Positions 7,020 to 54,148 of a DNA stretch of 64,000 bases are shown here, piece by piece. Every line of letters begins with the position of its first letter. Position 1 is the stretch's first letter. The stretch lies in NCBI GenBank assembly GCA_000091205.1, contig AP006486.2. One strand, given 5' to 3'. Below the pieces are notes generated by a model, which saw nothing but the letters and a program-made list of their open reading frames with translations, was not told the origin of the DNA and ran no database searches. The position numbers were made by a program, and so were the translations under genes. The stretch comes from Cyanidioschyzon merolae. Its lineage: Eukaryota.

Positions 7020-8368
7020 GAGCGTAAACTGCGGGCCTGTAAACATTCAGAGCGACGAGCGGTGAAAGTCCCAGTCGTGGACGCTGCATACCGGAGTGCT
7101 TGGCGCCAGGTGCTTTCCTGTCTGAACGAAGTCGCTGTGAGAAGAAAACATGGTCAGAACCGCGTCCTTGGTATAACATGGAGAGACCCAACAATAATCG
7201 CTGCCGAGAACTTGTCGATGGACAAGTGTCGGAAGCGAGCACACCCTTTCCGGAAGGAAACACGAGTAGCATGCTTTCAAGCTGGTGCCTTTTCCTTCAT
7301 TACGTCGCTTCCGTTCTGTTCGCGCCCCCAGGACGACCGATAGAAACGTAAGAGCTCGTATCTCGCCCTGGAACAGGAAAACCCATCTTGAGACGCCCGA
7401 GCAGCGCTCGATAAAAGGCATGCTTTGTCTCCGCCAATTGAAACGCATCCTCCCCACACATGTAAGAGTGCAAAGCGTCAACGGTTAGGAAAGAGCCATC
7501 TTTGAGTACACAGACGCTTCCGCATTCCATATACAACACAGTTCGGTTTTGTGTGCAGCTGGAAGCAGTACAGCGGGTTCTTCGAATAGCGCCCACGTCA
7601 GCAAGCGTCCCAGGGGCTTACTGCAGGGCAAAGGTTACCATTATGATCAATAAAATGAAGTACAACATTTCACAATCAGGGCGTATGCATATACCTACTC
7701 ATAGACGCCTCCGAGCGTTCTTTGAACAGCCATCTGCTATCTACTTCAGTTTACCCATGCACACGTCGACCATGAAACGTTGCCGCACGAAGTTAAACGG
7801 CGTCAGCGGCGTTTTTCCAGCATTGGGAGTCGGATGCCTGCCTGTAAGCGTCGCACAGGTCGCGGAGGTCTCCCAGCATGTCCTTGTGCACCCCTTTGGG
7901 ATCAGCTCTCTGGAAGGGGCCTGCTGGGTCCGAAATAGACACAGAGTCTTGCCCCTATTCTGGATGGACGATACCTCAAGCTGACGCCCTCAATGGCATC
8001 GCTACGTACTACGCTCTCCGTGTCGCTTCCATGCATGCGCTAGGGACGAACTTTCGAACGCTTACAGCAGGCTCGGCGCCCCGTGGACCGTAGGAAATAG
8101 CCGCTATCTCCGAGAACAAGTACAGGCAATGTCATTTGAAGGTTGGAAGAGCGATGGGCGCTTTTGCGGATCGCTTATATCAGGCTCCGTCGCACATCAC
8201 AGTGCAGTGCACATATGCCGTCAACGGAATCGTGAGAGGATCCGCGTCATTGATGATCATTGATATCTCGTACATTTTGAGAAGATCTGGTACATACGGT
8301 ACGCTAGGTTCTTCGACCCGGTGTATTTGTTTCGATGTCTGCTAAGCTTAACAGTCAACACTGATGTG

Positions 8369-10060
8369 CGCATGATACTGGCGAGGAACTTGCTCCATGT
8401 ACCAAGACCCAGCTTGTACGTTGTCGCAGCGCTGGGAGCGTTTTCGCTCTTCCAAGTTGGTAGCACAGTCGCGAAGTATGCACTATGGTTCTGGAAACAG
8501 AAGCGCGCTGGCCGCCCTGTAAGTCGCGGGCTCCTTGAAGTCGTCACAGCGCTGGGGCCGGTACCGGTTCCGGGTTTCGGCAACGCTCTCTACTTGAGTC
8601 GCGTCGGTTTCTTCCGTGCCCTTTACGAGTCCTGTTTGGAACGCCAGGTCACGGTCTTTTGGCTTAGCAGCACGCCATTGTTGATCGTTTCGGCTCCTGA
8701 TCTGGTGGAACAGGTACTAACGAGTCGCACGTTCGAGAAGCCGCAGTATTTCGGGTATCGTTCCCGCACTGTAAAGACCGCTCTGGAGCTGCACCAAAGG
8801 GCCGAGCTTCTACGTGAAAAAATCGAGACTGCGGACCCAGATCAGCAGCAACGAGTTCGCGAAGACCCGTCGCGGGCGGCTTTGTTGGACTTGATTGACC
8901 GCTCGCTCACTGAAATCGCCTCGAGTACAGAAAAATTTCTCGCAGAGCTACGCGCTGAAGACAACGTGGGGAAAGACGCATCCAAGCTTATTCAACGATT
9001 CTACGTACAGCTTAACTGCAAGGTGCTATTCGGGCTGGTGGTCGATAATGCTGAAGCAACACGCATTGCGTCCGCTATCGAAAAGGCTGGTGCGGAGTTC
9101 AGCAGACGCATGATTTTGCCACAACGAGCCCTTTATGCATGGTTCGCCAACGTAAGCTACATCTACCATACAAGTGTCCTGCTTATCTTCGGGCAGAAGA
9201 TTCTCCGCCATCTGCGGATATCATCAAATTCGTGGATAAATGGCTGGCTTGGTAAAGCAGGTCGGCTGCGAAGGTTGGCGAAAGTGCTCGGCTTATTGAT
9301 GGCGGCTACGCAGACGGTGCCTATCGCTGCTAGCTGGGCACTGATACTGGTAAGCGTCCACGAAGATGTTCGTGAGAAGTTGGCTTGCGAGGCGCGACGA
9401 TTGCTTTCTGAAGATCTCAGTGTGAACGGGGGCAGAGGTGTCGCCCAACAGGGTTCGCAGACCTCGCAGACTACGCCAGCGCAAAAAGCAAACTTGACTG
9501 CATCGGACATTGCCACTGACGTGAATCGTCTATCCAAGCTGTTGAAGAAACATTCCTACTTTGATGCGGTAATTGCCGAAACGCTGCGGCTCTTTCCACC
9601 GTTTCCTTTGATTCAGCGGCAGGCTCAATGTGACACTCACTTGGGCGACGTATTTGTGCCCGGGGGAACCCTCGTGGCGGCTGTTCCCTGGCTTCAGCAC
9701 CATCACCCGGCGTACTGGAAACAGGCAGAATCTTTCAACCCGGAAAGATGGATCAGCCCAACGGATAATGTTGCTCGCCATGGAGATGCACCATCCGACT
9801 ACTGCTACATTCCGTTCGGAAGGGGTCGAAGAATGTGCGCAGGTAATCCGCTCGCGATGGTTGAGCTCAAGTGCCTCCTGTTGCTTGTTGCTTTACAGGA
9901 GCCGGACCTGCTCTTCGACTTGGAACCACAAGAGACGTCTCCTGAGCCTCAGGCTGGGATGCGGTTCCCGCCCCTGACCATGCGCCCGCCACGATTTGCT
10001 GTTCGACAGGAAGAACCGATTCATCGCAAGTTATGCCAGCAAAACTCGAATGAACTTTGA
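8369..10060 (+). CDS. Cytochrome P450 monooxygenase, family not assignable.
   Basis: It has the heme-binding signature FGRGRRMCAGNPLA (FxxGxRxCxG), the ExxR motif ETLRLFPP and the PERF-like FNPERW. There is an N-terminal hydrophobic anchor (LYVVAALGAFSLFQVG). The start is set at the first in-frame ATG (8369); the ORF-track start at 8321 is a GTG. Confidence 0.8.
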   Translation, partial: RMILARNLLHVPRPSLYVVAALGAFSLFQVGSTVAKYALWFWKQKRAGRPVSRGLLEVVTALGPVPVPGFGNALYLSRVGFFRALYESCLERQVTVFWLSSTPLLIVSAPDLVEQVLTSRTFEKPQYFGYRSRTVKTALELHQRAELLREKIETADPDQQQRVREDPSRAALLDLIDRSLTEIASSTEKFLAELRAEDNVGKDASKLIQRFYVQLNCKVLFGLVVDNAEATRIASAIEKAGAEFSRRMILPQRALYAWFANVSYIYHTSVLLIFGQKILRHLRISSNSWINGWLGKAGRLRRLAKVLGLLMAATQTVPIAASWALILVSVHEDVREKLACEARRLLSEDLSVNGGRGVAQQGSQTSQTTPAQKANLTASDIATDVNRLSKLLKKHSYFDAVIAETLRLFPPFPLIQRQAQCDTHLGDVFVPGGTLVAAVPWLQHHHPAYWKQAESFNPERWISPTDNVARHGDAPSDYCYIPFGRGRRMCAGNPLAMVELKCLLLLVALQEPDLLFDLEPQETSPEPQAGMRFPPLTMRPPRFAVRQEEPIHRKLCQQNSNEL

Positions 10061-17988: not shown

Positions 17989-20272
17989 GAATCGCTACCT
18001 TCATGTACGCTGGCATGCGTCGTCGATTGCTTGACAGCGTCGGAGCAGAGCAGCCTCGGGGAGCTGCTCTCTGAAACCGATTCATTGTCGCCGGTTTATC
18101 CATTTTCTCTGCAGCACTGCGTGGTGAAATTTCTCTGTCCGCACAGCAGTCGTTTGCAAGTATCGTTTGGGGAGGGGGCCATTTCAGTGCGAGCGTGCAG
18201 TGCACTGGCCAGGATTTGCCTCTACTGCTCGCACACGAAGGACGACGTGCGTCGGGGTAGATGCTTGGCACCGGTCCACGTAGCGGCCGCGGACGTTGCG
18301 CTCGACTGGGTGTCGTACCAGGGCACCCCGTGTACCACCAAAAGAACTGGTTTGGGGGCTGGGAATAATGATGTATGCTCCTCATAGCTGTAAGTGCCAG
18401 AATCTTTTGATTGATGAAGTGATAGAACGCCAGACGATGGCGATCTGTGGCGAGCAACAGGATTCTTGCCAGAGGCGTGCAATATACCTCAATGGACTTT
18501 GTTCGTTCCGAATGGATAGATTTTCGTCCTAACATCAAGCGGTTAGTAAACGAAAACGAGCGTATGATTATCGTCAAAACGGCAACTCCAATCGTTTGGA
18601 GGAAATGGCTGCATGGTCTTCAGTGAACTCACAAACTCTGTATGTTGGCGGACTGTTTTGGAAGTATGGTACCGCACGGGGACGCCAACAGGCGATCCAC
18701 ACGTGCACCTGCGCTCAGGAATGAAAGGCGATCATCTGGCATCGACGCTGATGGGGTCCTCCTGCCATAAGCGTGTCGAGAAGGAGATGCCAAGCCGATC
18801 GCACGGTATCGGCTGCTGCTGGCTGAAACGCCAGCGTGTCTGCTTAGAGGCGGTTGCTTCAGCGCCATGCATTTGTCGTGGATGCTCACGAACTGGCTAT
18901 TGGATTTTAGTTGTGCATGTCCCATGATTCTGACCGGAATTCTGTGGACATAGGTCTGTTGTCGATAACCAGGAAGAAAGCAGATTCCTTTTTTCTACGG
19001 TGCCGGGTATGAGAATCTGAAGGAAATCCAGTCGACGCACGACCGCTGTCGTCTGCGAGATATATGGGCGATATGCTTTGTGCTATAGAGTCAGATCCGT
19101 CAATCTAACAGGAATCCGCTAAATGCACGACTGCTGTCGGTAACCTGAGGGGTGCATGGTGATCTTTTCCAGAATCGGCTACCTCGACTGACCTTTGGAA
19201 AGGCTGCTCGTCGTGGATGCTGATTAGATCCATCTAGAATCCGCTCATATGTTGGAGCTACAGTGGGCATTTGCTGCGATGCTGGATCCACCTTTGAGGC
19301 AGTCGTCGCATTGAGAGAGAACGGCTTTGCTGTGCCAAATGGACGTCAATTCGAGGCTCGAGGGAGTGGATGATGCCAACCCGCATCCGTGGAGAGTCCC
19401 CTTCGGAAGAGGATTGTGAAAGCTCCACGACGGACATGTATACGCATGCATTCTAAGGCACGCTCCCGTCGGCGAAGAGTAACCCGATGCGCCCACGCGC
19501 AGTCAGTGCGTGGATCGAACGCTCTGGGCCGCAGTGTATGCGGTCACCAGGACGGCTCCGCTGCTAACGTTCCGGCCAGTGAGCGCGGAAAATGGCAGTT
19601 TCTGGCGCACCAAATCCCTAGCTGCACTCCTCGTTTCAGTGAATGCTGCCTCCGAAAATCCTGATAGGGAACAGACTGCAAGTATCAATATAAGAGAACT
19701 CGACAAGGCCAGATATTGAATCCATTCCCGCACAGAGGTCATGCACCTCCAGTGCGTATTTTACCACACGAAAGCGTTATCGTGCAGCCCCACGACAGCG
19801 TTAGCGATGTGACGATCTGCATATCGCAGCCTCAGTTCTAAAACAACGCAGCCCTCGGTCTCGAAGAACGTGGCATACCGCTGCTCATGGTTAAATCATC
19901 TCCGGGGCGTGCGTTTCCGCCCATACTTTTCACGCGTTTCCGCGTTTCGTAGCATATCAATGCGAGTTTTTCACATCGGCCGCTCCCGTCCCACAAACTG
20001 TCAGAGTCCTGCAGAATTCAGAAGTCTAAAGCTTATATCTTGTTCCCAATAATTGCACGAGCAAAAGAAACTGTCCTATCCAGCTCAAGAAAACGCATAT
20101 TTCGGGCGTTTCAGCCGCACTGCCTTCAGCGCTGCTCGCAAGTGCATCATGTGGCGTTTCGGGCGGACGGCGATTTTCGCCGGCGCGGGCATGTGCGCGT
20201 CCGGCTGAACGCGTCCTCAAGAGCGGTACGAAGCAGCGTTCGAGTTCGTTGCAACGCAGTGAAACTTCCAGC

Positions 20273-21418
20273 ATGTTCCTTATAGCAAGCTGGAACTGCA
20301 ATTCTGTAACGAATGCTTTCCACCAGAAACTGGTGGTCCGATACAGTTCAGAATTAAGTCGCAGAAACCCACGAAAAGGAGCGTGTGGTGATTTCTGGGG
20401 CACAACTGAGCTTTCGAGGCGGTTGCCACAGGTTGACCGCCCGACCACGAGATTTGCTACCAGCAAGCAAACTCGCCGGAGAAACCGTTCAGAACTTGTA
20501 CGCTCTTCAGCACGTGGAGGCTCCGGCTCTAATGACCCTGAGGAAAAAGACGCAACCCCGGAACCAGGATCTTTCTTTGAAGAGGATTCAACGGCTATTG
20601 AGTACTTCAGCCCAAGTGAAAAGAGGGACACAGAGGTTCCGGTTTCGGGAAAGCTCGCTGAACTGCCTCTGTTTCCACTGCCCCTTGTTCTGAGTCCTGG
20701 ACAGCCCATTCCCCTGCATATTTTCGAAATGAGATATCGTCAGATGTTTCAGCGAATTCGGGAAGGAGATGGCCGTTTCGGTATTGTGATGTATGACAAG
20801 GACCGGAACGCACACGCTGCTGTCGGCACCATGGCCGAAATAAATGTATACGAACCCCTTGCGGACGGTCGAATCATGACAAGCAGTATCGGACGCGAGC
20901 GCTTCAGAGTGCTCAAGTACACGAAGGACTCTCCGTACCTAGTTGCGCTTGTGGAATACTTTGACGACGAAGTGTGCATCGAGAGCGTGGAGCAAATATT
21001 AGCGGCCCTGAAAGAGCCGCTACCGCAGAGCGGCGATCAGGAAACGAGCAGGATTTCCAAGCAAAGCTTGACGCTACTGGAGAGACGCGTTTGGTCGGCG
21101 CTCGGTGACGTGTTGCGGCTGTCAAATAAGCTGTACAACAGGGTGGTGAGTTTGAGTAAGCTCGTGGTGGATAATAGCCCTGAGACGGTGCTGAGCATTC
21201 CCGAGGGGCATTTGGATCCGGAGCAGAATTTCCATCGGCAGAAGCTATTTAGTTTTGCCGTAAGCAGTATACTCGACATGCCTGTGCGGCAGCAGCAGTT
21301 GCTACTGCAAACGCGCAGTACCGCAAAAAGGCTGTTGAAGCAGGCGCAATTACTCGAGGGAGCTCGACAGTACCTTGCTGCTCAAGTCACGATTAAGAAA
21401 GCCCTTGGAGAGTCGTAG
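20273..21418 (+). CDS. Lon protease N-terminal (LON substrate-binding) domain-containing protein with an S/R-rich N-terminal presequence.
   Basis: PLFPLPLVLSPGQPIPLHIFEMRYRQMFQRI...DGRFGIVMY...GTMAEI matches the Lon N-domain consensus (LPL..VLFPG..LPL.IFE.RY..M). The start is the first in-frame ATG; the ORF-track start at 20249 is a TTG. Confidence 0.6.
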   Translation: MFLIASWNCNSVTNAFHQKLVVRYSSELSRRNPRKGACGDFWGTTELSRRLPQVDRPTTRFATSKQTRRRNRSELVRSSARGGSGSNDPEEKDATPEPGSFFEEDSTAIEYFSPSEKRDTEVPVSGKLAELPLFPLPLVLSPGQPIPLHIFEMRYRQMFQRIREGDGRFGIVMYDKDRNAHAAVGTMAEINVYEPLADGRIMTSSIGRERFRVLKYTKDSPYLVALVEYFDDEVCIESVEQILAALKEPLPQSGDQETSRISKQSLTLLERRVWSALGDVLRLSNKLYNRVVSLSKLVVDNSPETVLSIPEGHLDPEQNFHRQKLFSFAVSSILDMPVRQQQLLLQTRSTAKRLLKQAQLLEGARQYLAAQVTIKKALGES

Positions 21419-21529: not shown

Positions 21530-23443
21530 TCATGATCTCGCTGGTACCGCAGACTCTTTTGTGCCTTGCACCTTCGTTTTCGCGGCTTCTTGCCTAGATT
21601 TCCGTGGAGCTCGAACGTTGTCAGTTTGTGGCCGAATCGAGCCAGCACGGAGGACAGTGGCAACACGAGATACAGTCGGATCGTAGCGGATAGGGTCCGT
21701 TGACGTCAGTCGATCCTGACGGCTGTCTGTTCCAAATGGATTCGGATGCAGGTAATGAAAAGAGAACTGAACCGGTTGCCTTTGAGTGGGCACGTACGCC
21801 CCCTGTAGGCGTGCAAACTGGAGTCGCTCTGTTGCCACTTCGCGCATAGCATCGACAAGTGCTCGACGCTCAATCTCATGACGCCACGGAAGCGCACCGG
21901 CATTGGATGAGGCGTTTCCGCCGCGTGGCGCATCGCGGCATTTGAGTAAGTCAGCCTGTTCGATAAAGTACTTCTCATTCTCCCGAATCTGCCTTTCTAC
22001 GTCCTTCTCTACCCTATTCGTTACCTGGATCCGAGTCAATGCCAGCTTGAACCTATCGAACGCGACCTCCCGGAGCTTCAGCAGCTGTTTCGCATATATG
22101 GTACGTAGGTCATTCAAAATGGAGGAGCGGAGTTCGTTTCGCTTCCTGATGAATGTCTTGGTATGACGGAACGCTGCAGCATCACGATCGTACTCTTCGA
22201 GCGCATTCTGAAGCAGACCATCAGCCTCGGTGCCAAAATTCTCGATTATTCGACCATCTTCTGCACGTGATTTCCAGGAGCGTGCACTATCCAGATACTG
22301 GGAAAATATGAAACTGCAGATCTCATCACACCTATACGAAGCTTCGAGCTCAGAGCTTCCTTCGACTTCAAGTCCACCATCAGTCTCTCCAACGCTGCGA
22401 TCTTTCCGGAATTGGCTCAGTGCCTTGAAGACGTTTTCAATGTGCAATTCCAATTCTGACAGCGGCACCGGACAAGAATACCTTGCAATGCTCTCGCCAG
22501 AACGATTGTCCCTCTGGAAAAAATATCCATCTGCTGTCGGGTCCAGAAAACGACGCTGCAGCTCTCCAACGCGCCGCATGAAATCAATCTTCCGCAGTAA
22601 AGCGCTTGGCAGAAACGCATATTCTGTTTGGTAGAACTCACTGAATCTCGAATTTCCTAAACGAGAGGGTTTCGTCATTCTGGACCACAGCGCGTTGAGA
22701 TCCTCCTGAAAAGCCGCAGCAACTTCGTCCCGGGAAACTTCTTCATCCTCGAAGTCGCGCACGATGACCAAAAGCATGCGCTTTCGTGACGGATGCGGCA
22801 TCGGACCCATCCCATGAAGCATGCCGGACGCGCAAAGACGGAGATAGGTCTCAAGGGCGCTGCCCAGACCACGCAGGCCAGATGCCGTTGACCTGGACAA
22901 GCTGTGATACTGCACGTTGAAAACGAGCACGTCGGCCATGGCTACGCCAAGCTCCACAGCTGTAGCCCCGTCATGTACAGCCCCCGACAGACCCTGCCTA
23001 CGGACTTGCAGGACGGAGCCCGCCCCCAAGGTGCTTGTAGACAAACCGTCCACATCCAAAACCAGTAGCTCTTGAGGTGGCTGGGCGAGAATAAGGGAGC
23101 GTGCGAGCGGCTCCGCTCGGCTCAGGCGCACGGTGCCACCTTTGGACGCACGCACTTCAGGCGCATCTTGCTCACCGCGGCCAACTGGCGGCGATGCACG
23201 AGCGCCTCCTGGGGCTCCGCGGCCGCCTGAAGGTGAAGGCCCATTAAATCGATCGGACACGCCTTTGCTTTCCGGAAAAGTCGTGCCAAAAACTTCGTTC
23301 AGAAACGTGGTCTTGCCTGAGCCCTCGACACCAACAGCCGCCACTGTAGAGTAGGACTCGTCTGAGAGTTCATTCTCCTTGATGAGCGCTTCGATGACAT
23401 TCTTATGTAAGCCGCTGGAGTTGTAAAGCTCCCAAACTCCCAT
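21530..23443 (-). CDS. RHD3/Sey1-type dynamin-like GTPase with no detectable C-terminal transmembrane anchor.
   Basis: The P-loop context YSTVAAVGVEGSGKTTFLNEVFGTTF parallels Sey1 ([26 protein letters not shown]). LLVLDVDGL, ADVLVFNVQ and LLVIVRDFED parallel Sey1/RHD3 (ILVMDVEG, EVLIVNMW, LLFVIRDH). The start is the first in-frame ATG at 23443; the ORF-track start at 23569 is a GTG. The protein is 638 aa. Confidence 0.7.
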   Translation of the reverse strand: MGVWELYNSSGLHKNVIEALIKENELSDESYSTVAAVGVEGSGKTTFLNEVFGTTFPESKGVSDRFNGPSPSGGRGAPGGARASPPVGRGEQDAPEVRASKGGTVRLSRAEPLARSLILAQPPQELLVLDVDGLSTSTLGAGSVLQVRRQGLSGAVHDGATAVELGVAMADVLVFNVQYHSLSRSTASGLRGLGSALETYLRLCASGMLHGMGPMPHPSRKRMLLVIVRDFEDEEVSRDEVAAAFQEDLNALWSRMTKPSRLGNSRFSEFYQTEYAFLPSALLRKIDFMRRVGELQRRFLDPTADGYFFQRDNRSGESIARYSCPVPLSELELHIENVFKALSQFRKDRSVGETDGGLEVEGSSELEASYRCDEICSFIFSQYLDSARSWKSRAEDGRIIENFGTEADGLLQNALEEYDRDAAAFRHTKTFIRKRNELRSSILNDLRTIYAKQLLKLREVAFDRFKLALTRIQVTNRVEKDVERQIRENEKYFIEQADLLKCRDAPRGGNASSNAGALPWRHEIERRALVDAMREVATERLQFARLQGAYVPTQRQPVQFSFHYLHPNPFGTDSRQDRLTSTDPIRYDPTVSRVATVLRAGSIRPQTDNVRAPRKSRQEAAKTKVQGTKESAVPARS

Positions 23444-23747: not shown

Positions 23748-24401
23748 ATGATTCTCGGAGTGTTGGTGTTTAATAGCCACGGCAAGTCCAGACTGGTTCG
23801 TTGGTACGATACTCGTCTGCAGAACCTCCCATTGAGTCAAAAACGCTTTATCGTTTGGAAGTGCTACCGTGCTGCTAGCACGCGAAATGCGGGCTCCAGC
23901 AACTTTTTGTTCAGCACGGACAGCGAGATCAGTGAGATTTTGGCCTTTCCCCTGAAAAGTGTCGAGCCTGCTGGTTTGGGGCGCACGTCTGGTGGAAACT
24001 CAGACGCGGCAAGTGTCGGACACGATCGCCCACGAAGAGACGCTTCGGACCGGCCTGAAACACGGCTCTATGGACGAGACCTCAGAGTCGTATTTCGCCA
24101 CTATGCCACACTTTTCTTCGTCTTTATCGTGGACGAAAATGAGAACGAGCTCGGGATTCTTGACCTGATCCAGGTATTCGTTGAAACATTGGACAGATAC
24201 TTCGGTAACGTCTGCGAACTCGACATTGTGTTCCATCATGAGAAAGTAAACTACGTCCTTGATGAATTAATCAGCGGTGGACTCGTGCTTGAAACGAACC
24301 AAGCCGATATCCTATCGGCGCTTCATGGAATATCCGAAGCGATAACAGCGGAGAACACGGGACAAGGGCTGACGAGTCTCGCTAGGAAAATGCGTCGATA
24401 G
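23748..24401 (+). CDS. Clathrin adaptor (AP) complex sigma small subunit.
   Basis: ATG start. The N-terminus MILGVLVFNSHGKSRLVRWY and the core FRHYATLFFVFIVDENENELGILDLIQVFVETLDRYFGNVCELDIVFHHEKVNYVLDELISGGLVLETN align closely with AP sigma1/2 (MI.F.L..NRQGK.RL.KWY; YRRYASLYFC..VD..DNEL..LE.IH.FVE.LD.YF.NVCELDLIFNF.KVY.ILDE...GE..ETS). Confidence 0.75.
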   Translation: MILGVLVFNSHGKSRLVRWYDTRLQNLPLSQKRFIVWKCYRAASTRNAGSSNFLFSTDSEISEILAFPLKSVEPAGLGRTSGGNSDAASVGHDRPRRDASDRPETRLYGRDLRVVFRHYATLFFVFIVDENENELGILDLIQVFVETLDRYFGNVCELDIVFHHEKVNYVLDELISGGLVLETNQADILSALHGISEAITAENTGQGLTSLARKMRR

Positions 24402-28824: not shown

Positions 28825-29438
28825 GGACAAAATGAGACTCCGGCGTTCTCATGGGTAACGTTGGGAGCTGGAAAGCAAGCAGCACTACAAAAGCCCGGAA
28901 AGGCTTGTGTTAATAATAGTTAGGAGAGAGCCAGATTGTAGGTGATATATTCGGTTAGTTAAATAACTCCATTCCATTTTATTCTGACATTGTGCTACTG
29001 AAAAACCGACGTCTTCCATAAGATTAAGAAATGTGTCAACTGGGAACCAGAATCCAGAATTTCGGCGAACAATGTACCAAAATAGATTATATTGTTCTCT
29101 ACGGACATTTCCGTCCGTGCGCATGAAAGCCGCCATCGCGGGCTCCCGATGAGGCCAGCGAGATCTCTGCAGCAGCGTACCAGCGCCAGGAGACAAATCG
29201 CGCTCCAATCGATCATTGTGGTAAGTTGCTCACGACTCTCGGCGGCGTTAGTCATAGACTGTTCTCCGAGAAGGTTGCCGTCGAAACAACTTTTTGGTTT
29301 TAGACCTGTTACAAGCCGCTGTTGGAGACAGCAGCGGACTGTAAAAACGGGGCCAGACAAGTGGCCGACTTGGCAAAAGGACACGCAAGTTTCACTTCAA
29401 GCACTGCTACCTAGTACTCATCCGCTGTGTTGGCCAAA

Positions 29439-30647
29439 ATGTTTGTGGCAAAGGTTCCGCTTAGCATTCGAGGACAGCCGAGTTTGAATGCCATAAAGCC
29501 GTCTGCGACCGCGCCCAAGCGCCGGAAGCTTTCGTTGTTTGCAGTTGCGGCTCCTCGTCGCTCGAGCGAACAGGCTTCTACTTCAGCAAACTCGCCTCTG
29601 CTTCCGAGAAACGATAAGGGGGAACCGTGGGTGGTACAGAGATCACGTCCTCGCCGGAATCGCAAGACAAATGCGGTTAGAGAAATGGTGCGTGAGAACG
29701 TCGTATCACCGGGGAACCTTGTGTATCCTGTCTTCATTCATGACGAAGACCACGATGAAGATATCGACGTGATGCCTGGATGCAAGCGCCTGAGCATCCA
29801 GAGTCTGCTGAAACACGCAGCGCAGGCTCTGGATTTAGGAATTGGCCACATCATTCTCTTCCCCAAAATCGAAGAGCATCTGAAAAGCAACACCGCGGAT
29901 GAATGCTACAACCCGAAAGGTCTTGTTCCCAGCGCAATTAAGGCGCTCAAAGAGAAGTTCGGCTCTCGAATCACTGTCTGGACGGACATCGCTCTGGACC
30001 CATACTCTGATCAGGGCCATGATGGCATTGTAAGCAACGATAGTTTAGGAGACGGCGGCTGTGCCAGAATCTTGAACGATGAGACTGTCGAGCAACTCTG
30101 CCGTCAGGCGCTCTGCCACGCACGGGCTGGAGCCGATATCGTTGCACCCTCGGATATGATGGATGGCCGCGTCGGGGCAATTCGTGACGCCCTTGATGAA
30201 GAGGGGTTCACGGATGTCTCGATCGTTTCCTACGCTGCGAAGTACGCCTCCTCATTTTATGGACCTTTCCGAGGTGCGCTTGATTCTGCTCCACGGGAAA
30301 CAAGTCGGGCACCGCGGGATAAAAAGACATACCAAATGGATCCGGGAAACGCGAGGGAAGCGCTTCGTGAAGCAGCGGCTGACCTCGAGGAAGGGGCAGA
30401 CATGCTTCTCGTGAAGCCTGGAGTTCCCTATCTCGATATCATTCACCTTCTTTACGATGCCTTCCCTGTTCCCATCGCCGCCTATCACGTCAGCGGTGAA
30501 TATGCCATGATCAAAGCAGCAGCACAACGGGGATGGATAGACGAGAAGCAGGTCGTTTTGGAAACCTTGTTAAGTTTGAAAAGAGCAGGTGCTACCTCTA
30601 TTCTCACGTACTACGCACTAGAGGCAGCTAAATGGATGCAGGAATAA
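29439..30647 (+). CDS. HEMB: Delta-aminolevulinic acid dehydratase (porphobilinogen synthase) with an N-terminal organellar (plastid-type) transit peptide.
   Basis: RPRRNRKTNAVREMVRE, VYPVFIHDED, SDQGHDG, APSDMMDGRVGAIR, VSYAAKYASSFYGPFR and HVSGEYAMIKAAAQ are classic ALAD blocks. The active-site lysine context is present. A roughly 70-aa S/A/R/P-rich presequence precedes the conserved core. The start is the first ATG at 29439; the ORF-track start at 29427 is a GTG. Confidence 0.9.
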   Translation: MFVAKVPLSIRGQPSLNAIKPSATAPKRRKLSLFAVAAPRRSSEQASTSANSPLLPRNDKGEPWVVQRSRPRRNRKTNAVREMVRENVVSPGNLVYPVFIHDEDHDEDIDVMPGCKRLSIQSLLKHAAQALDLGIGHIILFPKIEEHLKSNTADECYNPKGLVPSAIKALKEKFGSRITVWTDIALDPYSDQGHDGIVSNDSLGDGGCARILNDETVEQLCRQALCHARAGADIVAPSDMMDGRVGAIRDALDEEGFTDVSIVSYAAKYASSFYGPFRGALDSAPRETSRAPRDKKTYQMDPGNAREALREAAADLEEGADMLLVKPGVPYLDIIHLLYDAFPVPIAAYHVSGEYAMIKAAAQRGWIDEKQVVLETLLSLKRAGATSILTYYALEAAKWMQE

Positions 30648-31433
30648 CAAAACGAGCGCGTGCTGAGAGAGCCCGTCTCTGCGGAGAATTGCAATGGTTG
30701 ATGGATGTCTTTTGCGCTCGGCACTGCCTCAGATCCGTTGCATTATCGAGCTGCTAAATCTTTGTTCACAGCTCCTGCTCTGAATTTGTTGCGAAGACCG
30801 ATATAACAATGCTAGGCCAATTGCTGCGGCGAACAGAAAGAATATGAACATGATCAGCGATCGTAAAGCGATGCGACGCATTTTGCACTTTTTGTTCCAC
30901 GCTTCGCGCCGTCAACATCCAACAGGGCGCTGGCACTTATGTCCGTCTTCGACTGACAGCAGATCTGGCAAAAAAGGGATGCTGGCGTATGAGAATCCGA
31001 AGATAGGAAGACGACAAGGAAGCTGTTGTAGAGAGAACCCTCAAAGCTTTGCGTTTTAATAGTGGAAAGAGTCCCAAACTTCAACCTGGACGCTCGTGTC
31101 GGTGGAACTGCTTCATTTCATAGTGACAGGGTGTAGTGCTGGCGAGCGGCTACGTTGGAAGCGCTCGAGCTTCTCTGCGGAAAGCTGGTTTCACCGTGGA
31201 CAACTCAAAAGGCCAGCTTCCGCAATATGTTGAGACTTTTTGTTTAAAACACCTAAAAGTCAGCGAGTGTTTGACTTTCGCAACGAGGCGCTGGCTTTCC
31301 GAGAGTTACTTACTATTAACGAAAGAGAACATTTAAAGCTCCACGGCAGGAAGCTGTTCGAAAGAAATTTGTGACTCTTTTGCACTCGCTGTGGAAACTT
31401 TGCGAAACCTTCCGTGACTATCAACTCGTTCAT

Positions 31434-32381
31434 ATGGATCAAGAGCGCGTTCTTCTTTCGCTTCAGCGACTCCTGGCCCCGGGCCAGCATCAGTCTGAGA
31501 CACAACTCGTTGCCTGCCTAGACGCGAGGGAGCTTAACGTGGAGGTGTTCTCAACTTTGTGGGAAAGCCTTGCAGCCACAGTCAGTTCAATCAACCCCAG
31601 ACTACTTCAGGTGCTCGAAGCAGAGCTCAGAGCGCTGCTTCGCCTCCTCTATTTTGCATTCAGCGTCGGTGTCGGCAGACCATTTCCTGGCGACGTTTAC
31701 CAGAACCTCACATACAGGGTAGATGTTGGTAATACTGTGTCAGAGGGAGACTCCGTTATCATGACCAGGGGCAGAAGGTTCCTCTACGGTTGTGCCTACG
31801 TCCTGGGGCACTACCTGCTGGAGCGTTACCAGACGATGCGTTACACGGGCTCCCCTTGGGTGCCGTCTGCGTCGAGCGCAGAAATGATCGACAACCTTCT
31901 CAAATCTATGGAATCTCTGAACTTTTTCCTGTTCTTTTTGATGAGAAAGTACCGGAATCCACTGGAGCGCATTTTTAGGCTGCGCTTGCGGCGGGCAGAG
32001 ACAGGCGCAACCCGCGCTCTAAGTTTTGAGATGCTCAATCGACAGCTTGTCTGGGAGGGCTTCACGGAACTTGCGATATCGGTGATACCCATCTTGCAGT
32101 CACCGCTTCTGCATCGAATCCTGAGGAAGGCCGTTTTCCATGGCCGTTTTGGAGCAGCATCGCGTGAAGTTGTGTCTCAAGAGCACTCGGGCAAAATCCG
32201 ATGCCGACTTTGCGGAAAATCGAGACCTCTTATGCCGCACATTCTCATCCCATGCCGACATCTTTTCTGCTACGTCTGCATGGCTATGAAAATACGTACC
32301 AATGGCTCGGAGGGATGTCCGTATTGTGGGTCTGAGTTTGAGCGGGCTGAAAGCGTGATTCCATCTCAGATGGTCATGTGA
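31434..32381 (+). CDS. PEX2: Peroxisome biogenesis factor 2 (PEX2), a RING-finger peroxin.
   Basis: It ends in a C3HC4 RING, CRLCGKSRPLMPHILIPCRHLFCYVCMAMKIRTNGSEGCPYCG (human PEX2: [28 protein letters not shown]...CPKCG). The N-terminus MDQERVLLSLQRL...LDARELN resembles the PEX2 N-terminus (RVLRISQLDALELN). The central block LNFFLFFLMRKY...LERIFRLRL...FEMLNRQLVWEGFTEL resembles LINFLIFLQRGKF..LTERLLGI...EYMNRELLWHGFAEF. The start is the first ATG; the ORF-track start at 31371 is a GTG. Confidence 0.75.
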   Translation: MDQERVLLSLQRLLAPGQHQSETQLVACLDARELNVEVFSTLWESLAATVSSINPRLLQVLEAELRALLRLLYFAFSVGVGRPFPGDVYQNLTYRVDVGNTVSEGDSVIMTRGRRFLYGCAYVLGHYLLERYQTMRYTGSPWVPSASSAEMIDNLLKSMESLNFFLFFLMRKYRNPLERIFRLRLRRAETGATRALSFEMLNRQLVWEGFTELAISVIPILQSPLLHRILRKAVFHGRFGAASREVVSQEHSGKIRCRLCGKSRPLMPHILIPCRHLFCYVCMAMKIRTNGSEGCPYCGSEFERAESVIPSQMVM

Positions 32382-32791: not shown

Positions 32792-35323
32792 TCAGGCGGT
32801 CTTCAAAGTGGAATCTTGTGAATGTACGGGGTTCGGATGGGAAACCTGAGCACCAACGAGCATACGGCTATGTACTGGCGAAGCGATGTCGATGCGTGTC
32901 CTTTGACGCTGCTGAGGCTGAGCTTCTCTATTCGAGCAATGGTCGCTAGGTGCGTCCGCGCCGGTGTGCTGCGCTGACCCCGGCGCAAGGCAACTTGACG
33001 TCCACGAATAGTGGGAGCGAAATGCCTCTCTCTCTTGAAGCTCATTCAGTACTGTTCGCCAGCTGGCGCTCGGTGCTGCAAAGCGTAACGCGTATAGTGC
33101 ATAGCCTTTCCAGAAGCTCGCGATTGGTTCATCTGCAGCGTCGTTAGCCTCGGTACCACTAACGCCTTTTGGTATGTCAGAAAACTGCTGCTCAAGTGTT
33201 GCCGGTCGGTCCCGCAACGCCGTGGCGACCTCTGCTACGCCACGGAGCCATACCTCAAGCATGGCGCGCGCTGCCTGGAAAAGCCATTCAGTTATCTCCT
33301 TGTCTAGCGCTCCAAGGTCTTCCTGGTCATAAAACAGCCGCAGGCTATCCACTATGTGACAAAAAGCATATGCCAAAAGAAGTGGAACCCAGCGCAGCCC
33401 ACGCTCGAACAGCTGCACCAGGCTTGTCACACTGCAAATGCGGCCGGAAGCAATATCTGTAGTGAATCCACGAATCCGCTCCTTGAGCTGCCGCAGGAAA
33501 TGCTTTTTCATGTTTGGAAATGCACGACATATCAAGCTAAATTCCTTCATTATGCGCTGTGTGCAGCTCTCGATTTCATTCCAGGTACAGGTCGCATACC
33601 AGAGCGGGGATTCCGCCTCAGGCATGCCCACCGTATAAGCAACAGACTGATTAGGTTCGCATGAGTACGCCGCCTGGACCAGTTGACAGTCAAGCAAAGG
33701 TCCCGACTTTGGGCTGATGCGCTCCAACGAAATATGTAGCGTTTCCGGTATTGATGTGGAGAACACCGAGCGGAATCGGGACGGACGCATTTTCCTTGCA
33801 ACTGACGAGAAGTCCGCGAGTTTCGGTATGCAAAGAGCAGTACTCACCTGTTCTTCATGCAGCAAAGCTCTTCCATCTCGAACACACTCGCCAATGAGTC
33901 GATGCAAAATCTGTGTATAGCCGTCTACCAGATCTTCCGCATGCTGCGACAGCACGGCGGGAACCAGTTTTTCTAGCGGCCTCATCAACATAGTGAGAAT
34001 CTCTGCTTGTAAAGCGGCGAAAAACCCCGGCGCTGCGGGGCCTTTCGCTGTTCGTGATCGCCCCAAGCGACAAGCGCTATCAAGTTCCTGAAGCAAGCCA
34101 GTGAGTGAGGCGGCGGTTGCCTTGTTCGCTCCGTGGTCCGCCAGCTTCTCGACGACTGTGTCTAGCATCTGCCAAATCTGTTTTGTATATGCATCAAGCA
34201 GAGACTCTTGTTTTGGTGCCGGTGTGGATACAATAGTCGGTCGCAGCCGGAGGGGTTCGCAGTCCGGGGAGCGCTCCGGGTGGTCACCATACCCGTCGAC
34301 CAGATCCAGCGGCTGGGCAGACCAAATAGAGAGCGTGACTGCCTCGTGATTTGCAGATTGCTCCTCGAGGCTCGCAAATGCCCCAAGGAATGAAATGACT
34401 GCACAAAAAGCCTGTCGCACCAATGTAAGCGTGACTTCAGGTCCACGGCTGCGCATCCGTTCGCAAACAATCCGACTGTGACTCTGAAACAGAGTATGCA
34501 GCATCTCGCCTAAATCCATGCCGAGGTCGATCTGGAGCCAGAGGAGCGCAGCAAAGCGCTTTCGCCGTTCAGACATTGGATACTCTATCGAAGAACTATC
34601 AAAGCACATGCTACATGCCGTCATTCTAGCTCGCTCTACGATCTCTTCTCGGAGCAGTGCACATTGTTCATGCAGCCTCACTCGTAGCTCGTGAATGAGA
34701 CTTTCAGAACGCAGTGTTGCGGTTTTCGTATCCTCCACAGGATTCCCCAGGGCGGCCTTGCTGCGTACGTATAGGGCATGCGCCTTCACAAGTTCTAGCC
34801 ACGAGCCATCCTCCAGCGCAGAGCAGGCACGCTCGAGAAGGCGCCGAGCCAAGCGGAGGCATTGCACTTGGGCCAGCAGGTCCAAGGGCGCTGCTGAGGG
34901 GTTTCGCGTTGCCGCTAGGTGGCAAGGTTGGACGTCCAGAGACTTCCACGTTGCGTCCCGGCGAAGTCGGTAAGAGAAAGGTGCAACGCTTCCTTCAGCT
35001 GACCCGCGAGAGCGCGCTTCGAGTTGCTCGTTTTCCCTCGATCCGTATCCCGCAAGCGACTCGTCCGACTTGGTTCCCAGCGGCGTACCCTGCTGAGAGA
35101 CCGCTTCCGATGAAGGACAACGCACACGAGAAGAGGTTTGGGCTGCAGCTCCGCGATCGCTTTCCTGCAAGGTCTCCAAGGTTCCGCACAACAAGTGCGC
35201 CCGCCTTGCAACAAATTCTAACGCGCTTGCAGCTTTTACAACAGAGGGATACACCAGCAAGAGGTTAGGCACCTCCTGTTGCATACCCCGAGCACCAGCG
35301 GAGTTGGAGCTATGAGGTTCCAT
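32792..35323 (-). CDS. Large hypothetical protein (about 843 aa), predicted mostly alpha-helical, function unknown.
   Basis: A long uninterrupted ORF with non-repetitive composition and codon usage like the neighbouring genes. I recognise no diagnostic motif. The start is the first in-frame ATG at 35323; the ORF-track start at 35329 is a TTG. Confidence 0.5.
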   Translation of the reverse strand: MEPHSSNSAGARGMQQEVPNLLLVYPSVVKAASALEFVARRAHLLCGTLETLQESDRGAAAQTSSRVRCPSSEAVSQQGTPLGTKSDESLAGYGSRENEQLEARSRGSAEGSVAPFSYRLRRDATWKSLDVQPCHLAATRNPSAAPLDLLAQVQCLRLARRLLERACSALEDGSWLELVKAHALYVRSKAALGNPVEDTKTATLRSESLIHELRVRLHEQCALLREEIVERARMTACSMCFDSSSIEYPMSERRKRFAALLWLQIDLGMDLGEMLHTLFQSHSRIVCERMRSRGPEVTLTLVRQAFCAVISFLGAFASLEEQSANHEAVTLSIWSAQPLDLVDGYGDHPERSPDCEPLRLRPTIVSTPAPKQESLLDAYTKQIWQMLDTVVEKLADHGANKATAASLTGLLQELDSACRLGRSRTAKGPAAPGFFAALQAEILTMLMRPLEKLVPAVLSQHAEDLVDGYTQILHRLIGECVRDGRALLHEEQVSTALCIPKLADFSSVARKMRPSRFRSVFSTSIPETLHISLERISPKSGPLLDCQLVQAAYSCEPNQSVAYTVGMPEAESPLWYATCTWNEIESCTQRIMKEFSLICRAFPNMKKHFLRQLKERIRGFTTDIASGRICSVTSLVQLFERGLRWVPLLLAYAFCHIVDSLRLFYDQEDLGALDKEITEWLFQAARAMLEVWLRGVAEVATALRDRPATLEQQFSDIPKGVSGTEANDAADEPIASFWKGYALYALRFAAPSASWRTVLNELQEREAFRSHYSWTSSCLAPGSAQHTGADAPSDHCSNREAQPQQRQRTRIDIASPVHSRMLVGAQVSHPNPVHSQDSTLKTA

Positions 35324-36660
35324 CAACAAAAAGGGCCACAGCGTTCGGCACCCTGGCGCAAGCTTGCCTTAAGCAGTTACGTCACACGCATTCACTGAAG
35401 CACCTTCCAGTGGAGTCCAGCGGTAAACGACGCAAGTGTGCCGAACTCAACCCGGTGGACAAACAAAGTCAATCTACCATCATCAGTCGACGTCCTGGTT
35501 AGCGTTTTCAATTGGTAGGTTCGCTAAACCCCTTCAAGATTATCCCCGATCTGCAGATGCTCGAATCGCTCTGCATGCCGGTGCACGCTGCCAGCTGCAT
35601 CATGTGTTCTTGTCCTATGTTACCTGCATTCGCTGCCGACGGTCTTGCCGTCCACGCATCTATCGTACATCATCCAAACAGGTCACGCAGGCGCCCCTAC
35701 CCACTTGCGCGGAGAACCGCGGATCCGAAACTTACCACGATTTCAGGCCTCTTTTGCTTGATCCACTTGGCTCCGTTGTGCACCATCCGTCCTATGGAGA
35801 AGCTCATCACTGAGGGCTTCAAAGGTGTGCGACGAGCACCTGTGATACTCATAGCCGTTCAGCTGGGCTATTCCTATGTGGCAAGCTAGTAGATTAGCCT
35901 AGACCAGGCATTTAGTGTGTGTTAAAGAATAATATCTGTAGCGCGAACTTATTTGCGAGACGTGATATGCGCCATTGCCCATCCCTTGACTCTGCGCTGC
36001 CCTTGCGTTGGGGAGAATTGCTGTCTCTTCCAGAATGCCGCGGTTTCGAATCGCAACGAGTATATTTGTTGAGATGTGTCAATCGCGTCTGGGAGCGACG
36101 CACACAGCGCCCTGGCGCGAACGCAGCACACGCAGCGTGGCAGCTTCTGAGTCGAGCGATCGACTTCTATTCGATTGTTTAGTATGCAGTGTGGGTATTG
36201 TGCTGGAATGCTGCGGACTCTCGATGAAAAACATCATGTATCATCAGAGCGGCGATTAAGTCCCCGCTTGGGGCAAGCCACTTGTATGGTACGGTCTGCA
36301 CTGTATCAAGGCTGGACTGCCATATACTTTCGCCACGAACAATGTTCGTGGGTAACTGTTAAACTATAATTGTGTTTCATTCATCAACATGACGGAGAAT
36401 AAATCCACCAATCACATAACATGTACAAAACGTACAGACCGATTGGGCTGCAATCACCTCGGCAGGTGCGGAACGGGCACCGCATCCCCGAGGTGAGCCT
36501 GGCTCTCTGGAGCGGGCGCGCTGAGAACACCGGCCAGTAACGGGATCACTCCCACGCGAAGCGCTTCGAAATATCAAAGAACATTCTTCGTTTCGTTGAG
36601 CGTTTAACGGCATTGCCACGTGAAATTCCTCTCGTTTGGAAGTAGACGTTTTTGACTGTT

Positions 36661-53341: not shown

Positions 53342-54148
53342 TCACGAACTTTTGTTAGATTGTCGCTCCGAGCATCGCATTCGTCGAGCAACTGCTGCAA
53401 CAAATGGAAGCAGAATCTTCCCAGTAAGGTCATCGATCAAAAGGATATTGTACAGGGCCGAGGCCGCCCAGACGACTTTTCGAAGGCCTGCTCCAGGTGG
53501 CGAGGCCGGTTGCCCTCGTTTGCATGATAGTTCGTGCCAGAGGATGATTCTTCGCACGACCTCCACTCTTGCAGGTGGTACACATATCAGGGTAAATACA
53601 GACGGCGGAGAATCATTGGCTCCCTCCACAACAAGCTGATAAACGAAGCAGTCCGCTTCGAGGTGCTCTTTGGACTGAGACACCAGAGATAGACCGTCGA
53701 GAATCGAGTTGAGCTCTACTGCACCAGTTTCCCGCTGCAATAGATTCATTGAACGTTTCATGGTTTCTGCAATGAGATCCTTTTGAATAGGCGTGTCGCT
53801 ATCGGTGTTGTAGAGTGCGACAGCAACAAAGTCGACAACCAAAGGACCAAAGTTCGGAAACTGCGAGAGCATATAGTCCAGGATAACGCGCTCTGCCCAT
53901 GACGAGCGACCTTTCGCTCCAAACACTAGAGCGCATACCGTCGCCTGCGGGGAAGTGGACTGTCCGAAGTGGGGAAAGACCTTCTCCGACAAAAAACCAT
54001 AGATTCCTTCTGTTGCTGGTGCAGCCGCTACAGATACCCCTTGCGACAAGGGCAGACCCAAAAGACTGGAACCTGATAGGTCTCCACGGCTTGAACTGGT
54101 ACCCGGCTCCCAAAACGAACTTGGTTCTGTAACTATGAGAGTTTCCAT
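53342..54148 (-). CDS. Hypothetical protein (268 aa), no recognisable family.
   Basis: The ATG-initiated ORF has a non-repetitive sequence with mixed hydrophobic and charged composition. An alternative overlapping ORF (53799..54242) looks less protein-like. Confidence 0.35.
   Translation of the reverse strand: METLIVTEPSSFWEPGTSSSRGDLSGSSLLGLPLSQGVSVAAAPATEGIYGFLSEKVFPHFGQSTSPQATVCALVFGAKGRSSWAERVILDYMLSQFPNFGPLVVDFVAVALYNTDSDTPIQKDLIAETMKRSMNLLQRETGAVELNSILDGLSLVSQSKEHLEADCFVYQLVVEGANDSPPSVFTLICVPPARVEVVRRIILWHELSCKRGQPASPPGAGLRKVVWAASALYNILLIDDLTGKILLPFVAAVARRMRCSERQSNKSS

Follow-up and report, generated by a model that had tools for sequence, protein, structure and literature searches.

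The gene at positions 21530-23443 (minus strand) of the analysed window, which is a stretch of 64,000 nucleotides of the Cyanidioschyzon merolae genome (contig AP006486.2), is proposed here to be PTF2, a soluble cytosolic paralogue of the ER fusogen Sey1/RHD3 which takes part in preprotein targeting. We give this reading a probability of about 0.78; the function in it is taken from the literature on the family, and indirect evidence links the gene to the locus tag CMD101C. Three Sey1/RHD3-like GTP-binding proteins of C. merolae, PTF1 (CMI311C), PTF2 (CMD101C) and PTF3 (CMQ054C), were described as "plastid targeting factors" by Baek et al. 2022 (PNAS, PMC9407449). They are without TM segments, their N-terminal 400-500 residues resemble Sey1/RHD3 with the GTP-binding motif included, and their C-terminus is PPP1-like with conserved glutamines. 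All three were co-purified transiently with a translocating chloroplast preprotein; PTF1 and PTF3 were located mostly in the cytosol and were able to bind transit peptides in vitro, and for PTF2 the finding is co-purification by mass spectrometry only (PMC9407449). A soluble Sey1-like GTPase had been considered unusual in the first-pass annotation of this DNA; the soluble form is borne out, but the class has been known since 2022 as the published PTF family.

The coding sequence is intronless and runs from an ATG at 23443 to a TGA at 21532-21530, as given by the ORF translation. The ORF was earlier counted as 638 aa, which is right for codons only if the stop is included; the protein has 637 residues. 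Its translation is an exact match of BAM79175.1 / XP_005535461.1 of C. merolae 10D. The same Met begins both orthologues compared (MGAWELY..., MTVYEVY...). A longer ORF with a GTG start, which reaches 23569, and metagenome models of 655 aa were rejected as artefacts of mechanical or prokaryotic-style gene calling. In GenBank the gene is labelled 'unknown GTP-binding protein', and orthologues carry the wrong labels 'Protein SEY1' or 'EcfA2'. The gene and its neighbour are as follows.

21530..23443, minus strand: complete CDS, 637 aa plus stop, inferred CMD101C (PTF2); from the ORF, the exact protein match and Pfam RHD3_GTPase and Sey1_3HB
20249..21418, plus strand: convergent Lon-N-domain gene; Pfam LON_substr_bdg 6.5e-24

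The family placement was done by profile, sequence and fold. Two Pfam profiles exceeded their cut-offs: RHD3_GTPase (PF05879) with 59 bits (cut-off 42.4) and Sey1_3HB with 35 bits (cut-off 24), the latter over profile positions 1-102 of 419 only. The top PDB match by sequence was Candida albicans Sey1p (5ca8, E 1.4e-13), and Foldseek also placed Sey1p (5ca8/5ca9) first at 6.5e-18, with GBP and atlastin at about 1e-7. Membership of GBP or atlastin was rejected on this difference and on the absence of a Pfam GBP match in the window protein, so that the Sey1/RHD3-type assignment made earlier is upheld on all three counts. The AF2 model used was built from a 36-sequence alignment (pLDDT 79.9); that from a 3-sequence alignment was unusable (pLDDT 46.7). 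A word-indexed homology search returned the same four proteins only, whether a single protein or the 36-sequence alignment was the query. Galdieria, Cyanidium, Rhodosorus and Porphyridium have orthologues of PTF2, and Tribonema has related proteins. In a BLASTP comparison with BAM81980.1 of C. merolae, the presumed PTF3, residues 140-500 were 25% identical (E 6e-24).

In the second half of the protein the membrane anchor of Sey1 is missing, as had been suggested, and a different C-terminus is present.

21806..22462, minus strand: helical stalk, residues 328-546; AF2 helices and Sey1_3HB positions 1-102 of 419
21644..21901, minus strand: C-terminal PTF2/PPP1-type signature, residues 515-600, ...ATERLQFARLQGAYVPTQRQPVQFSFHYLHPNPFGTDSR...; sub-HMM search
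21533..21643, minus strand: basic disordered tail, residues 601-637, weakly conserved; calculated pI 11.5 and AF2

A Kyte-Doolittle scan averaged over 19 residues detected no transmembrane segment and no C-terminal hydrophobic hairpin in the window protein. The whole protein stays below 1.6, and the highest mean (1.50, residues 159-177) falls within the G domain, on the core strand that corresponds to '...SEVLIVNIW' in Sey1p. The fungal Sey1 used as control gave two peaks, at 664-682 and 686-704, and canonical members among the same matches gave paired peaks at about residues 650-790. The stalk helices of the AF2 model (328-351, 362-395, 403-421, 429-471, 478-500 and 523-546; pLDDT about 95) form a stalk shorter than that of Sey1p, and the tail is hydrophilic and basic, in agreement with its earlier description, and is disordered in the model. 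A sub-HMM of residues 515-600 matched 56 of the best 150 relatives and none of the canonical TM-bearing Sey1 proteins. G548, P557, H563, L565, P569, F570, G571 and D573 are near-invariant in this signature, and the block ...ERLQxARLQG...RxPV...PFGxDSR is common to the 56 related clusters, Tribonema included.

The Sey1_3HB match ending at profile position 102 of 419 could by itself suggest that the C-terminal part is missing, that is, that the gene is a truncated or mis-modelled canonical Sey1/RHD3 with its TM hairpin in a missed 3' exon or recently lost by frameshift. Such a reading is effectively refuted and its probability is negligible. In three species, at 70% and 53-56% identity, the strongly conserved C-terminal block is followed by ends of the protein that differ in position by no more than about 10 residues, and the same TM-less architecture is present in more than 50 related clusters. 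The convergent Lon-N gene lies 111 bp from the window gene, stop codon to stop codon, and the same arrangement was found in two relatives, the spacing being 108-111 bp in two species and at most 760 bp in the third; since this neighbour is syntenic, a missing 3' exon is unlikely, as was argued in the first pass. No downstream hydrophobic stretch conserved across the relatives was found, and a missing 3' exon carrying the hairpin was rejected on both grounds. C. merolae does have two hydrophobic 19-mers further down this strand; they fall opposite the Lon-N gene, in antisense, or past it, and the relatives do not conserve them. Moreover, the canonical ER Sey1 of C. merolae is named in the literature as a separate gene, CMN141C (PMC9407449), listed at 768 aa, and only this gene plus '3 weaker hits' are given for the species. 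As C. merolae keeps CMN141C, the window protein is read as a diverged paralogue with another C-terminal domain and not as a Sey1 that has lost its anchor. One 768-aa protein (P0160) was considered as CMN141C and was found to be a Picocystis-type RHD3.

Three traits of the PTF proteins are present in the window protein, namely the Sey1-like N-terminus with its GTP-binding motif, the lack of a TM segment and paralogy to the inferred PTF3. BAM79175.1 sits on a contig of 513,455 bp and the paralogue BAM81980.1 on one of 1,232,258 bp. We take the third letter of the locus tag to denote the chromosome, lettered by size, and on this assumption BAM81980.1 fits CMQ054C on chromosome 17. A P450 ORF is located five ORF-genes upstream of the window gene; CMD096C is a P450 of C. 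merolae in the literature, and the gene count from it gives 101, which fits CMD101C. The assignment as PTF2 is thus drawn from chromosome size, gene order, the C-terminal signature and elimination of the other PTF loci. CMD101C was equated by Zauner et al. 2019 with a family of Sey1-like nucleomorph and periplastid-compartment proteins, and this equation is matched here by the C-terminal signature in stramenopile relatives.

The G domain retains its nucleotide motifs in part.

22484..23362, minus strand: RHD3/Sey1-type G domain, about residues 28-320; Pfam, AF2 pLDDT mostly >85 outside loops, Foldseek 5ca8/5ca9
23309..23332, minus strand: G1 / Walker A GVEGSGKT, residues 38-45; motif alignment, Gly at position 4
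23132..23269, minus strand: low-complexity insertion of 46 aa (residues 59-104), rich in G/S/P/R/A, within the loop alpha1-beta2 (switch 1); composition, pLDDT, orthologue alignment
23075..23122, minus strand: conserved block SRAEPLARSLILAQPP, residues 108-123, after strand beta2; invariant alignment columns
23045..23056, minus strand: G3 / switch 2 DVDG, residues 130-133; alignment to canonical Sey1 'LDVEGxD'
22754..22759, minus strand: G4 'RD' motif, R229 and D230; alignment

For switch 1 and G3 the MAFFT alignment was read against the canonical Sey1 proteins other than the fungal P0004, which misleads there because its gene model is without that segment. D230 is invariant in 15/15 aligned proteins; the RD motif is typical of the Sey1, atlastin and GBP subclass, and its role is described in PMC4576867. 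The core residues of the SRAEPLARSLILAQPP block are invariant in the three Cyanidioschyzon/Cyanidium-type proteins.

A low-complexity insert of about 60 aa, after the P-loop and before the switch region, had been reported for the G domain. The low complexity and the placement in the G domain after the P-loop are correct; the insert is shorter and lies within the switch 1 loop itself. Residues 59-104 consist to 72% of G/A/P/S/R, against 40% in the whole protein, with 65% GC, and disorder is indicated by pLDDT below 50 at residues 67-93 (AF2). The distance from P-loop to G3 is 84 aa in the window protein; the orthologues of Galdieria and Rhodosorus have 48 aa there and canonical Sey1/RHD3 proteins a median of 41 aa, from which the true excess comes to about 36-43 aa. 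In the comparison with related algae the insertion proved lineage-specific and the C-terminal ends conserved: the insertion is confined to three Cyanidioschyzon/Cyanidium-type proteins. The two closest orthologues carry versions of it that vary in length and sequence, and in the alignment it is absent from those of Galdieria and Rhodosorus. An unspliced intron was rejected as its origin, the frame being open across the variable-length region in 3 species and every independent gene call reading through it.

Two features of the canonical active site are lost. Position 4 of the P-loop is Ser in 47/47 canonical Sey1/RHD3 proteins (the catalytic S68 of caSey1p, PMC4576867) and Gly in the window protein, and the switch-1 motif T-x-G-[IV]-W, found in 46 of these 47, is absent from it; most PTF/PPP1 relatives have lost both as well. 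With these losses and a disordered loop in switch 1, PTF2 probably runs a nucleotide cycle unlike that of Sey1p, in which binding would be kept and intrinsic hydrolysis would be weakened or dependent on a partner, as judged from the sequence. The same losses may also be read in a stronger way, with PTF2 as a nucleotide-binding, catalytically dead scaffold (pseudo-GTPase) which uses the Sey1 fold as a platform for dimerisation or chaperoning and for which the GTP cycle is irrelevant. It would agree with this that Walker A is kept in only 8/56 PTF2/PPP1-type clusters (absent in 48/56) and that stramenopile relatives are missing G3 too. We consider it rather unlikely, as the Walker A Lys/Thr, G3 DxxG and G4 RD are strictly kept in the three Cyanidioschyzon/Cyanidium-type orthologues, which argues for selection on nucleotide binding; further, Ser100-Lys-Gly could substitute for the switch-1 Thr-x-Gly, and a dimer partner could supply hydrolysis in trans.

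In other lineages the PTF2/PPP1-type relatives have mostly lost Walker A or G3, at least one stramenopile included. It is possible, and put forward tentatively, that the PTF/PPP1 lineage records a stepwise decay from a mechanochemical fusion GTPase to a nucleotide-gated and then a nucleotide-independent targeting chaperone. In that case PTF2 would bind GTP but would need a partner for its hydrolysis, either PTF1/PTF3 or a receptor at the envelope, and the disordered loop might serve in regulation or in the binding of clients.

Of the anatomy of Sey1, PTF2 retains the G domain (P-loop, G3 DxxG, G4 RD) and the beginning of the stalk; the distal stalk, TM hairpin and amphipathic tail are replaced by the conserved C-terminal signature, which it probably has in common with the PPP1-type proteins found in the red plastid lineage. 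By extension from the literature, in the proposed role as a targeting factor it may engage preproteins bound for the chloroplast, at the outer envelope or close to it, probably as a homodimer or as a heterodimer with PTF1/PTF3 and together with cytosolic Hsp70, and would hand them to the import machinery.

A main function in plastid division, as a Sey1-derived dynamin-like protein at the plastid-dividing ring or outer envelope, has also to be weighed. Dynamin-superfamily proteins are established plastid-division factors, which counts for it. A passage in Zauner et al. 2019 reports CMD101C in the proteome of isolated plastid-dividing machineries, and these authors argue for such a role of the cryptophyte nucleomorph homologues. 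Any envelope-bound protein would, however, be expected in a plastid-surface fraction, Toxoplasma depleted of PPP1 still had intact plastid shape and division at 48 h, with import blocked (PMC3228799), and all three PTFs came down with the translocating preprotein (PMC9407449). A role mainly in division is therefore held to be improbable, and PTF2 as a preprotein targeting factor is the reading preferred.

Red algae are without clear orthologues of Toc75, Toc34 and Toc159, so the route of preproteins into red-algal and red-derived plastids (diatoms, apicomplexans) calls for another explanation, and the candidate at present is the PTF/PPP1 family; this point was already made in 2022. The present locus adds little to it, the sequence suggesting a PTF2 GTPase cycle unlike that of Sey1p. 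The small additions made here are the lineage-specific switch-1 insertion, the loss counts for the P-loop Ser and switch-1 motif, and the Lon-N synteny.

Among known systems, PTF1 and PTF3 are the nearest in type, with a Sey1/RHD3-like G domain, Walker A, proximal stalk, no TM segment, about 610-640 aa and co-purification with preprotein. PTF3 shares the Gly at P-loop position 4 and has its own G-domain loop insertion, which comes after G3, but it is only 25% identical to PTF2, and the C-terminal domain of the PTF3 type (...GVVIGFGLNTALRP...LFRWQPTVHFDIDL) can hardly be aligned to the signature of PTF2 (weak similarity, hhalign probability 57%); the signature common with stramenopile PPP1-type proteins is in PTF2 and not in PTF3. 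PPP1 (T. gondii 087270, with diatom and cryptophyte nucleomorph homologues), which is needed for apicoplast import (PMC3228799), is described with a C-terminal block with conserved glutamines (PMC9407449, PMC3228799), to which the signature of PTF2 would correspond; this block is reported from the red plastid lineage only and is linked to plastid protein import (PMC9407449, PMC3228799, Zauner et al. 2019). The PTF2 C-terminal sub-HMM recovers many proteins of 450-590 aa, several with an N-terminal hydrophobic peak which may be a signal peptide. PPP1 proteins are periplastid in the literature with the GTP-binding region lost or replaced, whereas PTF2 keeps G1, G3 and G4 and is without a signal peptide. 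Atlastins and GBPs belong, like the window protein, to the dynamin-like subclass with the RD motif, and GBPs are soluble, but their matches are far weaker than those of Sey1p. Sey1p/RHD3 (5ca8, 5ca9) share with PTF2 the G-domain subclass with RD at G4 and the way in which the three-helix-bundle stalk begins; PTF2 differs from them by the lack of a TM hairpin and amphipathic tail, a stalk of about half the length, the 36-43-aa insertion in switch 1, and the loss of the catalytic Ser and the switch-1 motif.

The protein under study is encoded by an uninterrupted ORF at 21530-23443 (-) of the window, which runs from an ATG at 23443-23441 to a TGA; the first-pass annotation had found this ORF and counted 638 aa, and translation gives 637 residues. 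Exact-sequence look-up returned BAM79175.1 (XP_005535461.1; UniRef100_M1V477), labelled 'unknown GTP-binding protein' of C. merolae 10D and located on a 513,455-bp contig. The base composition and gene density of the window resemble those of a compact eukaryotic genome. Longer versions of the ORF, one of 679 aa that starts at a GTG and 655-aa calls in metagenomes, were rejected as mechanical gene-calling artefacts; the orthologues begin at the same methionine.

We identify this protein as PTF2 (locus CMD101C), with a probability of about 0.9, on four points. The locus tags of C. merolae presumably bear the chromosome letter, with chromosomes lettered by size, and the 513-kb chromosome fits D (chromosome 4), not I or Q. 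The 1.23-Mb contig of the paralogue BAM81980.1 fits Q, so that this protein would be PTF3. Five genes upstream of PTF2 there is a P450 ORF, and counting ORF-genes from CMD096C, a C. merolae P450, leads to 101. The C-terminal signature common to stramenopile proteins is found in PTF2 and not in the PTF3-type protein, which agrees with the linking of CMD101C to Sey1-like cryptophyte nucleomorph ORFs and a diatom periplastid protein (Zauner et al. 2019) and so supports CMD101C. The gene is thus very probably an already known one, PTF2 itself, and no new family member. No unusual feature was noticed in the following genes of the window.

Selected genes of the window
4449-7019 (+): V-ATPase subunit a
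8321-10060 (+): cytochrome P450, probably CMD096C
29427-30647 (+): ALAD / porphobilinogen synthase
31371-32381 (+): Pex2/Pex12-type RING peroxin

A 948-aa ORF at 45221-48067 (+), whose sole Pfam match is RVT_1 (2.8e-11, residues 570-788), could be a retroelement or, as transposons are few in this genome, a telomerase reverse transcriptase. The ORFs at 32792-35329 (-), 42865-43602 (-) and 53342-54148 (-), of 845, 245 and 268 aa, gave no Pfam match at E <= 0.01.

PTF2 exceeds the cut-offs of Pfam RHD3_GTPase (59 bits; cut-off 42.4) and Sey1_3HB (35 bits; cut-off 24), the latter stalk model being covered only at positions 1-102 of 419, and its sole meaningful PDB sequence match is C. albicans Sey1p (1.4e-13). 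The AF2 model, built from a 36-sequence alignment, is confident (mean pLDDT 79.9; 356 residues above 90) and predicts a G domain, a helical stalk with helices between residues 328 and 546, and a conserved but irregular segment of middling confidence (547-590); the tail and the low-complexity residues 67-93 are disordered. Foldseek of this model against the PDB placed Sey1p at the top (5ca8, 6.5e-18; 5ca9, 3e-17) with GBPs and atlastins behind at about 1e-7, so that GBP-like membership was rejected and the original Sey1/RHD3 placement was upheld. A 19-residue Kyte-Doolittle scan of the whole protein gave no value above 1.50, a peak that belongs to a buried G-domain strand (residues 159-177), while the fungal Sey1 used as control gave the peak pair expected of it, located at 664-704. 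At the C-terminus, a basic tail of 37 residues has a calculated pI of 11.5. The missing membrane anchor and the hydrophilic, basic tail described in the first-pass annotation were thus both found again; its reading of a soluble Sey1-like GTPase was correct, but the type is already published (PMC9407449).

Close homologues of PTF2 are few, namely a 70%-identical protein (assembly GCA_041825655.1 and hot-spring metagenomes) and Cyanidium caldarium KAK4538306.1 (53-56% identity). The C-termini of the three orthologues fall within about 10 residues of one another, and in each a divergent basic tail comes after a block of strong conservation. The order ALAD, Img2, AP-sigma, PTF2, convergent Lon-N is the same in the 70%-identical relative, Lon-N is convergent in Cyanidium too, and the stop-to-stop gap between the PTF2-type gene and Lon-N is 108-111 bp in two species (111 bp in the window). 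No hydrophobic stretch was conserved downstream of PTF2 on comparison of the relatives' downstream regions. Given the shared ends, conserved order, short gap and lack of conserved hydrophobicity, it is very unlikely that a 3' exon coding for a TM hairpin was missed, as had been argued earlier from the convergent neighbour, and truncation of a canonical Sey1 is practically excluded.

The Lon-N gene itself (20249-21418 (+); 7023-8168 and 7613-8758 in the relatives' loci L001 and L004) encodes a stand-alone Lon N-terminal (substrate-binding) domain without AAA or protease domain; its listed ORF begins with TTG, and translation probably starts at an ATG further downstream. With 111 bp between the stops, the 3' ends of the PTF2 and Lon-N transcripts must abut or overlap. 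A 227-aa ORF at 20026-20709 (-), antisense to the 5' part of Lon-N and with a hydrophobic end (ICVFLSWIGQFLLLVQLLG), has no conserved counterpart downstream in the relatives and is therefore most likely spurious.

A search of 1.84 billion representative proteins with a profile of PTF2 and its two close homologues yielded 829 matches at E <= 1e-3 (48 at E <= 1e-30). The best 150 of them were dissected by hydropathy and by separate sub-profiles for the N-terminus, the G domain, the stalk and the C-terminal block. Three groups were seen among these 150. The first, about 56 clusters of 190-590 aa sharing the C-terminal block, has no member with a C-terminal TM segment by hydropathy; the majority are without Walker A and several have an N-terminal hydrophobic peak. 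Its named members belong to Galdieria phlegrea, Rhodosorus marinus, Porphyridium purpureum ('Protein SEY1'), Porphyridium aerugineum and the stramenopile Tribonema minus. The second is canonical Sey1/RHD3 (700-880 aa), with Walker A and paired TM peaks and without the C-terminal block. The third is TM-less, keeps Walker A and has a different C-terminus; it includes C. merolae BAM81980.1 (P0180, the inferred PTF3; 638 aa, on a 1,232,258-bp contig). P0180 and the PTF3-type proteins P0056, P0075, P0069 and P0112 share a C-terminal segment of their own (...QRGVVIGFGLNTALRPRGYGNFQLIAS...LFRWQPTVHFDIDL), which is strongly conserved, looks beta-rich and can be aligned only marginally with the PTF2/PPP1 signature (hhalign probability 57%). 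Database labels are poor for PTF2 ('unknown GTP-binding protein') and its orthologues: P0030 of Porphyridium purpureum is named 'Protein SEY1' in public sources, and P0002 and P0005-P0012 are mislabelled 'energy-coupling factor transporter ATP-binding protein EcfA2' by JGI/IMG metagenome pipelines. P0049 (Tribonema minus KAG5188969.1) and its close metagenomic relative P0050 are PPP1-type proteins with an N-terminal hydrophobic peak; they keep Walker A (GSQGTGKT / GSEGTGKS) and lack the switch-1 region and the G3 DxxG. Their Walker A partly qualifies the published claim that outside Rhodophyta the GTP-binding domain is missing.

Residues 59-104 of PTF2 are 72% G/A/P/S/R, and alignment with relatives places this insert in the alpha1-beta2 loop, i.e. 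switch 1. It is found in all three Cyanidioschyzon/Cyanidium-type proteins, with differing lengths and sequences, and the orthologues of Galdieria and Rhodosorus lack it. From P-loop to G3 the three proteins with the insert span 84, 85 and 68 aa, the two orthologues without it 48 aa, and canonical proteins 41 aa (median). The disordered loop is lineage-specific; the G-domain insert first put at about 60 aa is present, with an excess of only about 36-43 residues. PTF3 has its own loop insertion, located after G3, and the AP-complex sigma subunit (23748-24401 (+); 217 aa; Pfam Clat_adaptor_s 2.6e-40) matches its 142-position profile in two stretches, with about 50 aa of low-complexity sequence (...EPAGLGRTSGGNSDAASVGHDRPRRDASDRPETRLYG...) splitting the domain. 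Loop insertions rich in G/S/R/P/A may thus be widespread among C. merolae proteins, and their presence does not have to imply a function.

In caSey1p, S68, the fourth P-loop residue, is the counterpart of S41 in dynamin and of the Arg finger in atlastin (PMC4576867). Among the canonical proteins, taken as listed matches of 700 aa or more (n=47), Ser occupies this position in all 47 and the switch-1 motif T-x-G-[IV]-W occurs in 46. The PTF2 P-loop, GVEGSGKT, has Gly where the canonical Ser sits, and the T-x-G-[IV]-W motif is absent from its sequence; that of PTF3 is GPRGSGKS, and Walker A is kept in only 8 of 56 PTF2/PPP1-type clusters (best 150 of 829 matches). In the alignment, G1 Lys/Thr, G3 DVDG and G4 RD are invariant among the three closest orthologues. 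Judged from these motifs, the catalytic Ser appears lost across the PTF family, and PTF2 would keep nucleotide binding but not Sey1-style intrinsic catalysis. The motif losses would also fit a pure pseudo-GTPase scaffold, although such a scaffold does not go well with the conserved G1, G3 and G4.

Baek et al. (2022) isolated C. merolae proteins that bind transiently to a chloroplast preprotein during its translocation (PMC9407449). In the PTF proteins the N-terminal 400-500 residues resemble Sey1/RHD3, the two TM segments are absent, and the C-terminal ~200 residues, with conserved glutamines, are like PPP1 (PMC9407449), known from Toxoplasma and diatoms as the periplastid import factor (Sheiner et al. 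2011, PMC3228799). PTF1 and PTF3 reside chiefly in the cytosol and bound transit peptides in vitro, and the true Sey1/RHD3 orthologue CMN141C is missing from the preprotein-associated fraction (PMC9407449); for C. merolae, a comparative survey gives CMN141C, 768 aa, 'and 3 weaker hits'. For PTF2 itself the functional evidence is co-purification only (PMC9407449). In the best-supported reading, whose anatomy is observed here and whose function comes from the 2022 paper, PTF2 would be a soluble Sey1-derived GTP-binding protein that takes part in preprotein delivery to the plastid envelope, perhaps complexed with PTF1/PTF3 and Hsp70. A role in plastid division, a minority alternative, would accord with the presence of CMD101C in the plastid-dividing-machinery proteome (Zauner et al. 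2019), but depletion of the Toxoplasma PPP1 hit import rather than division (PMC3228799).
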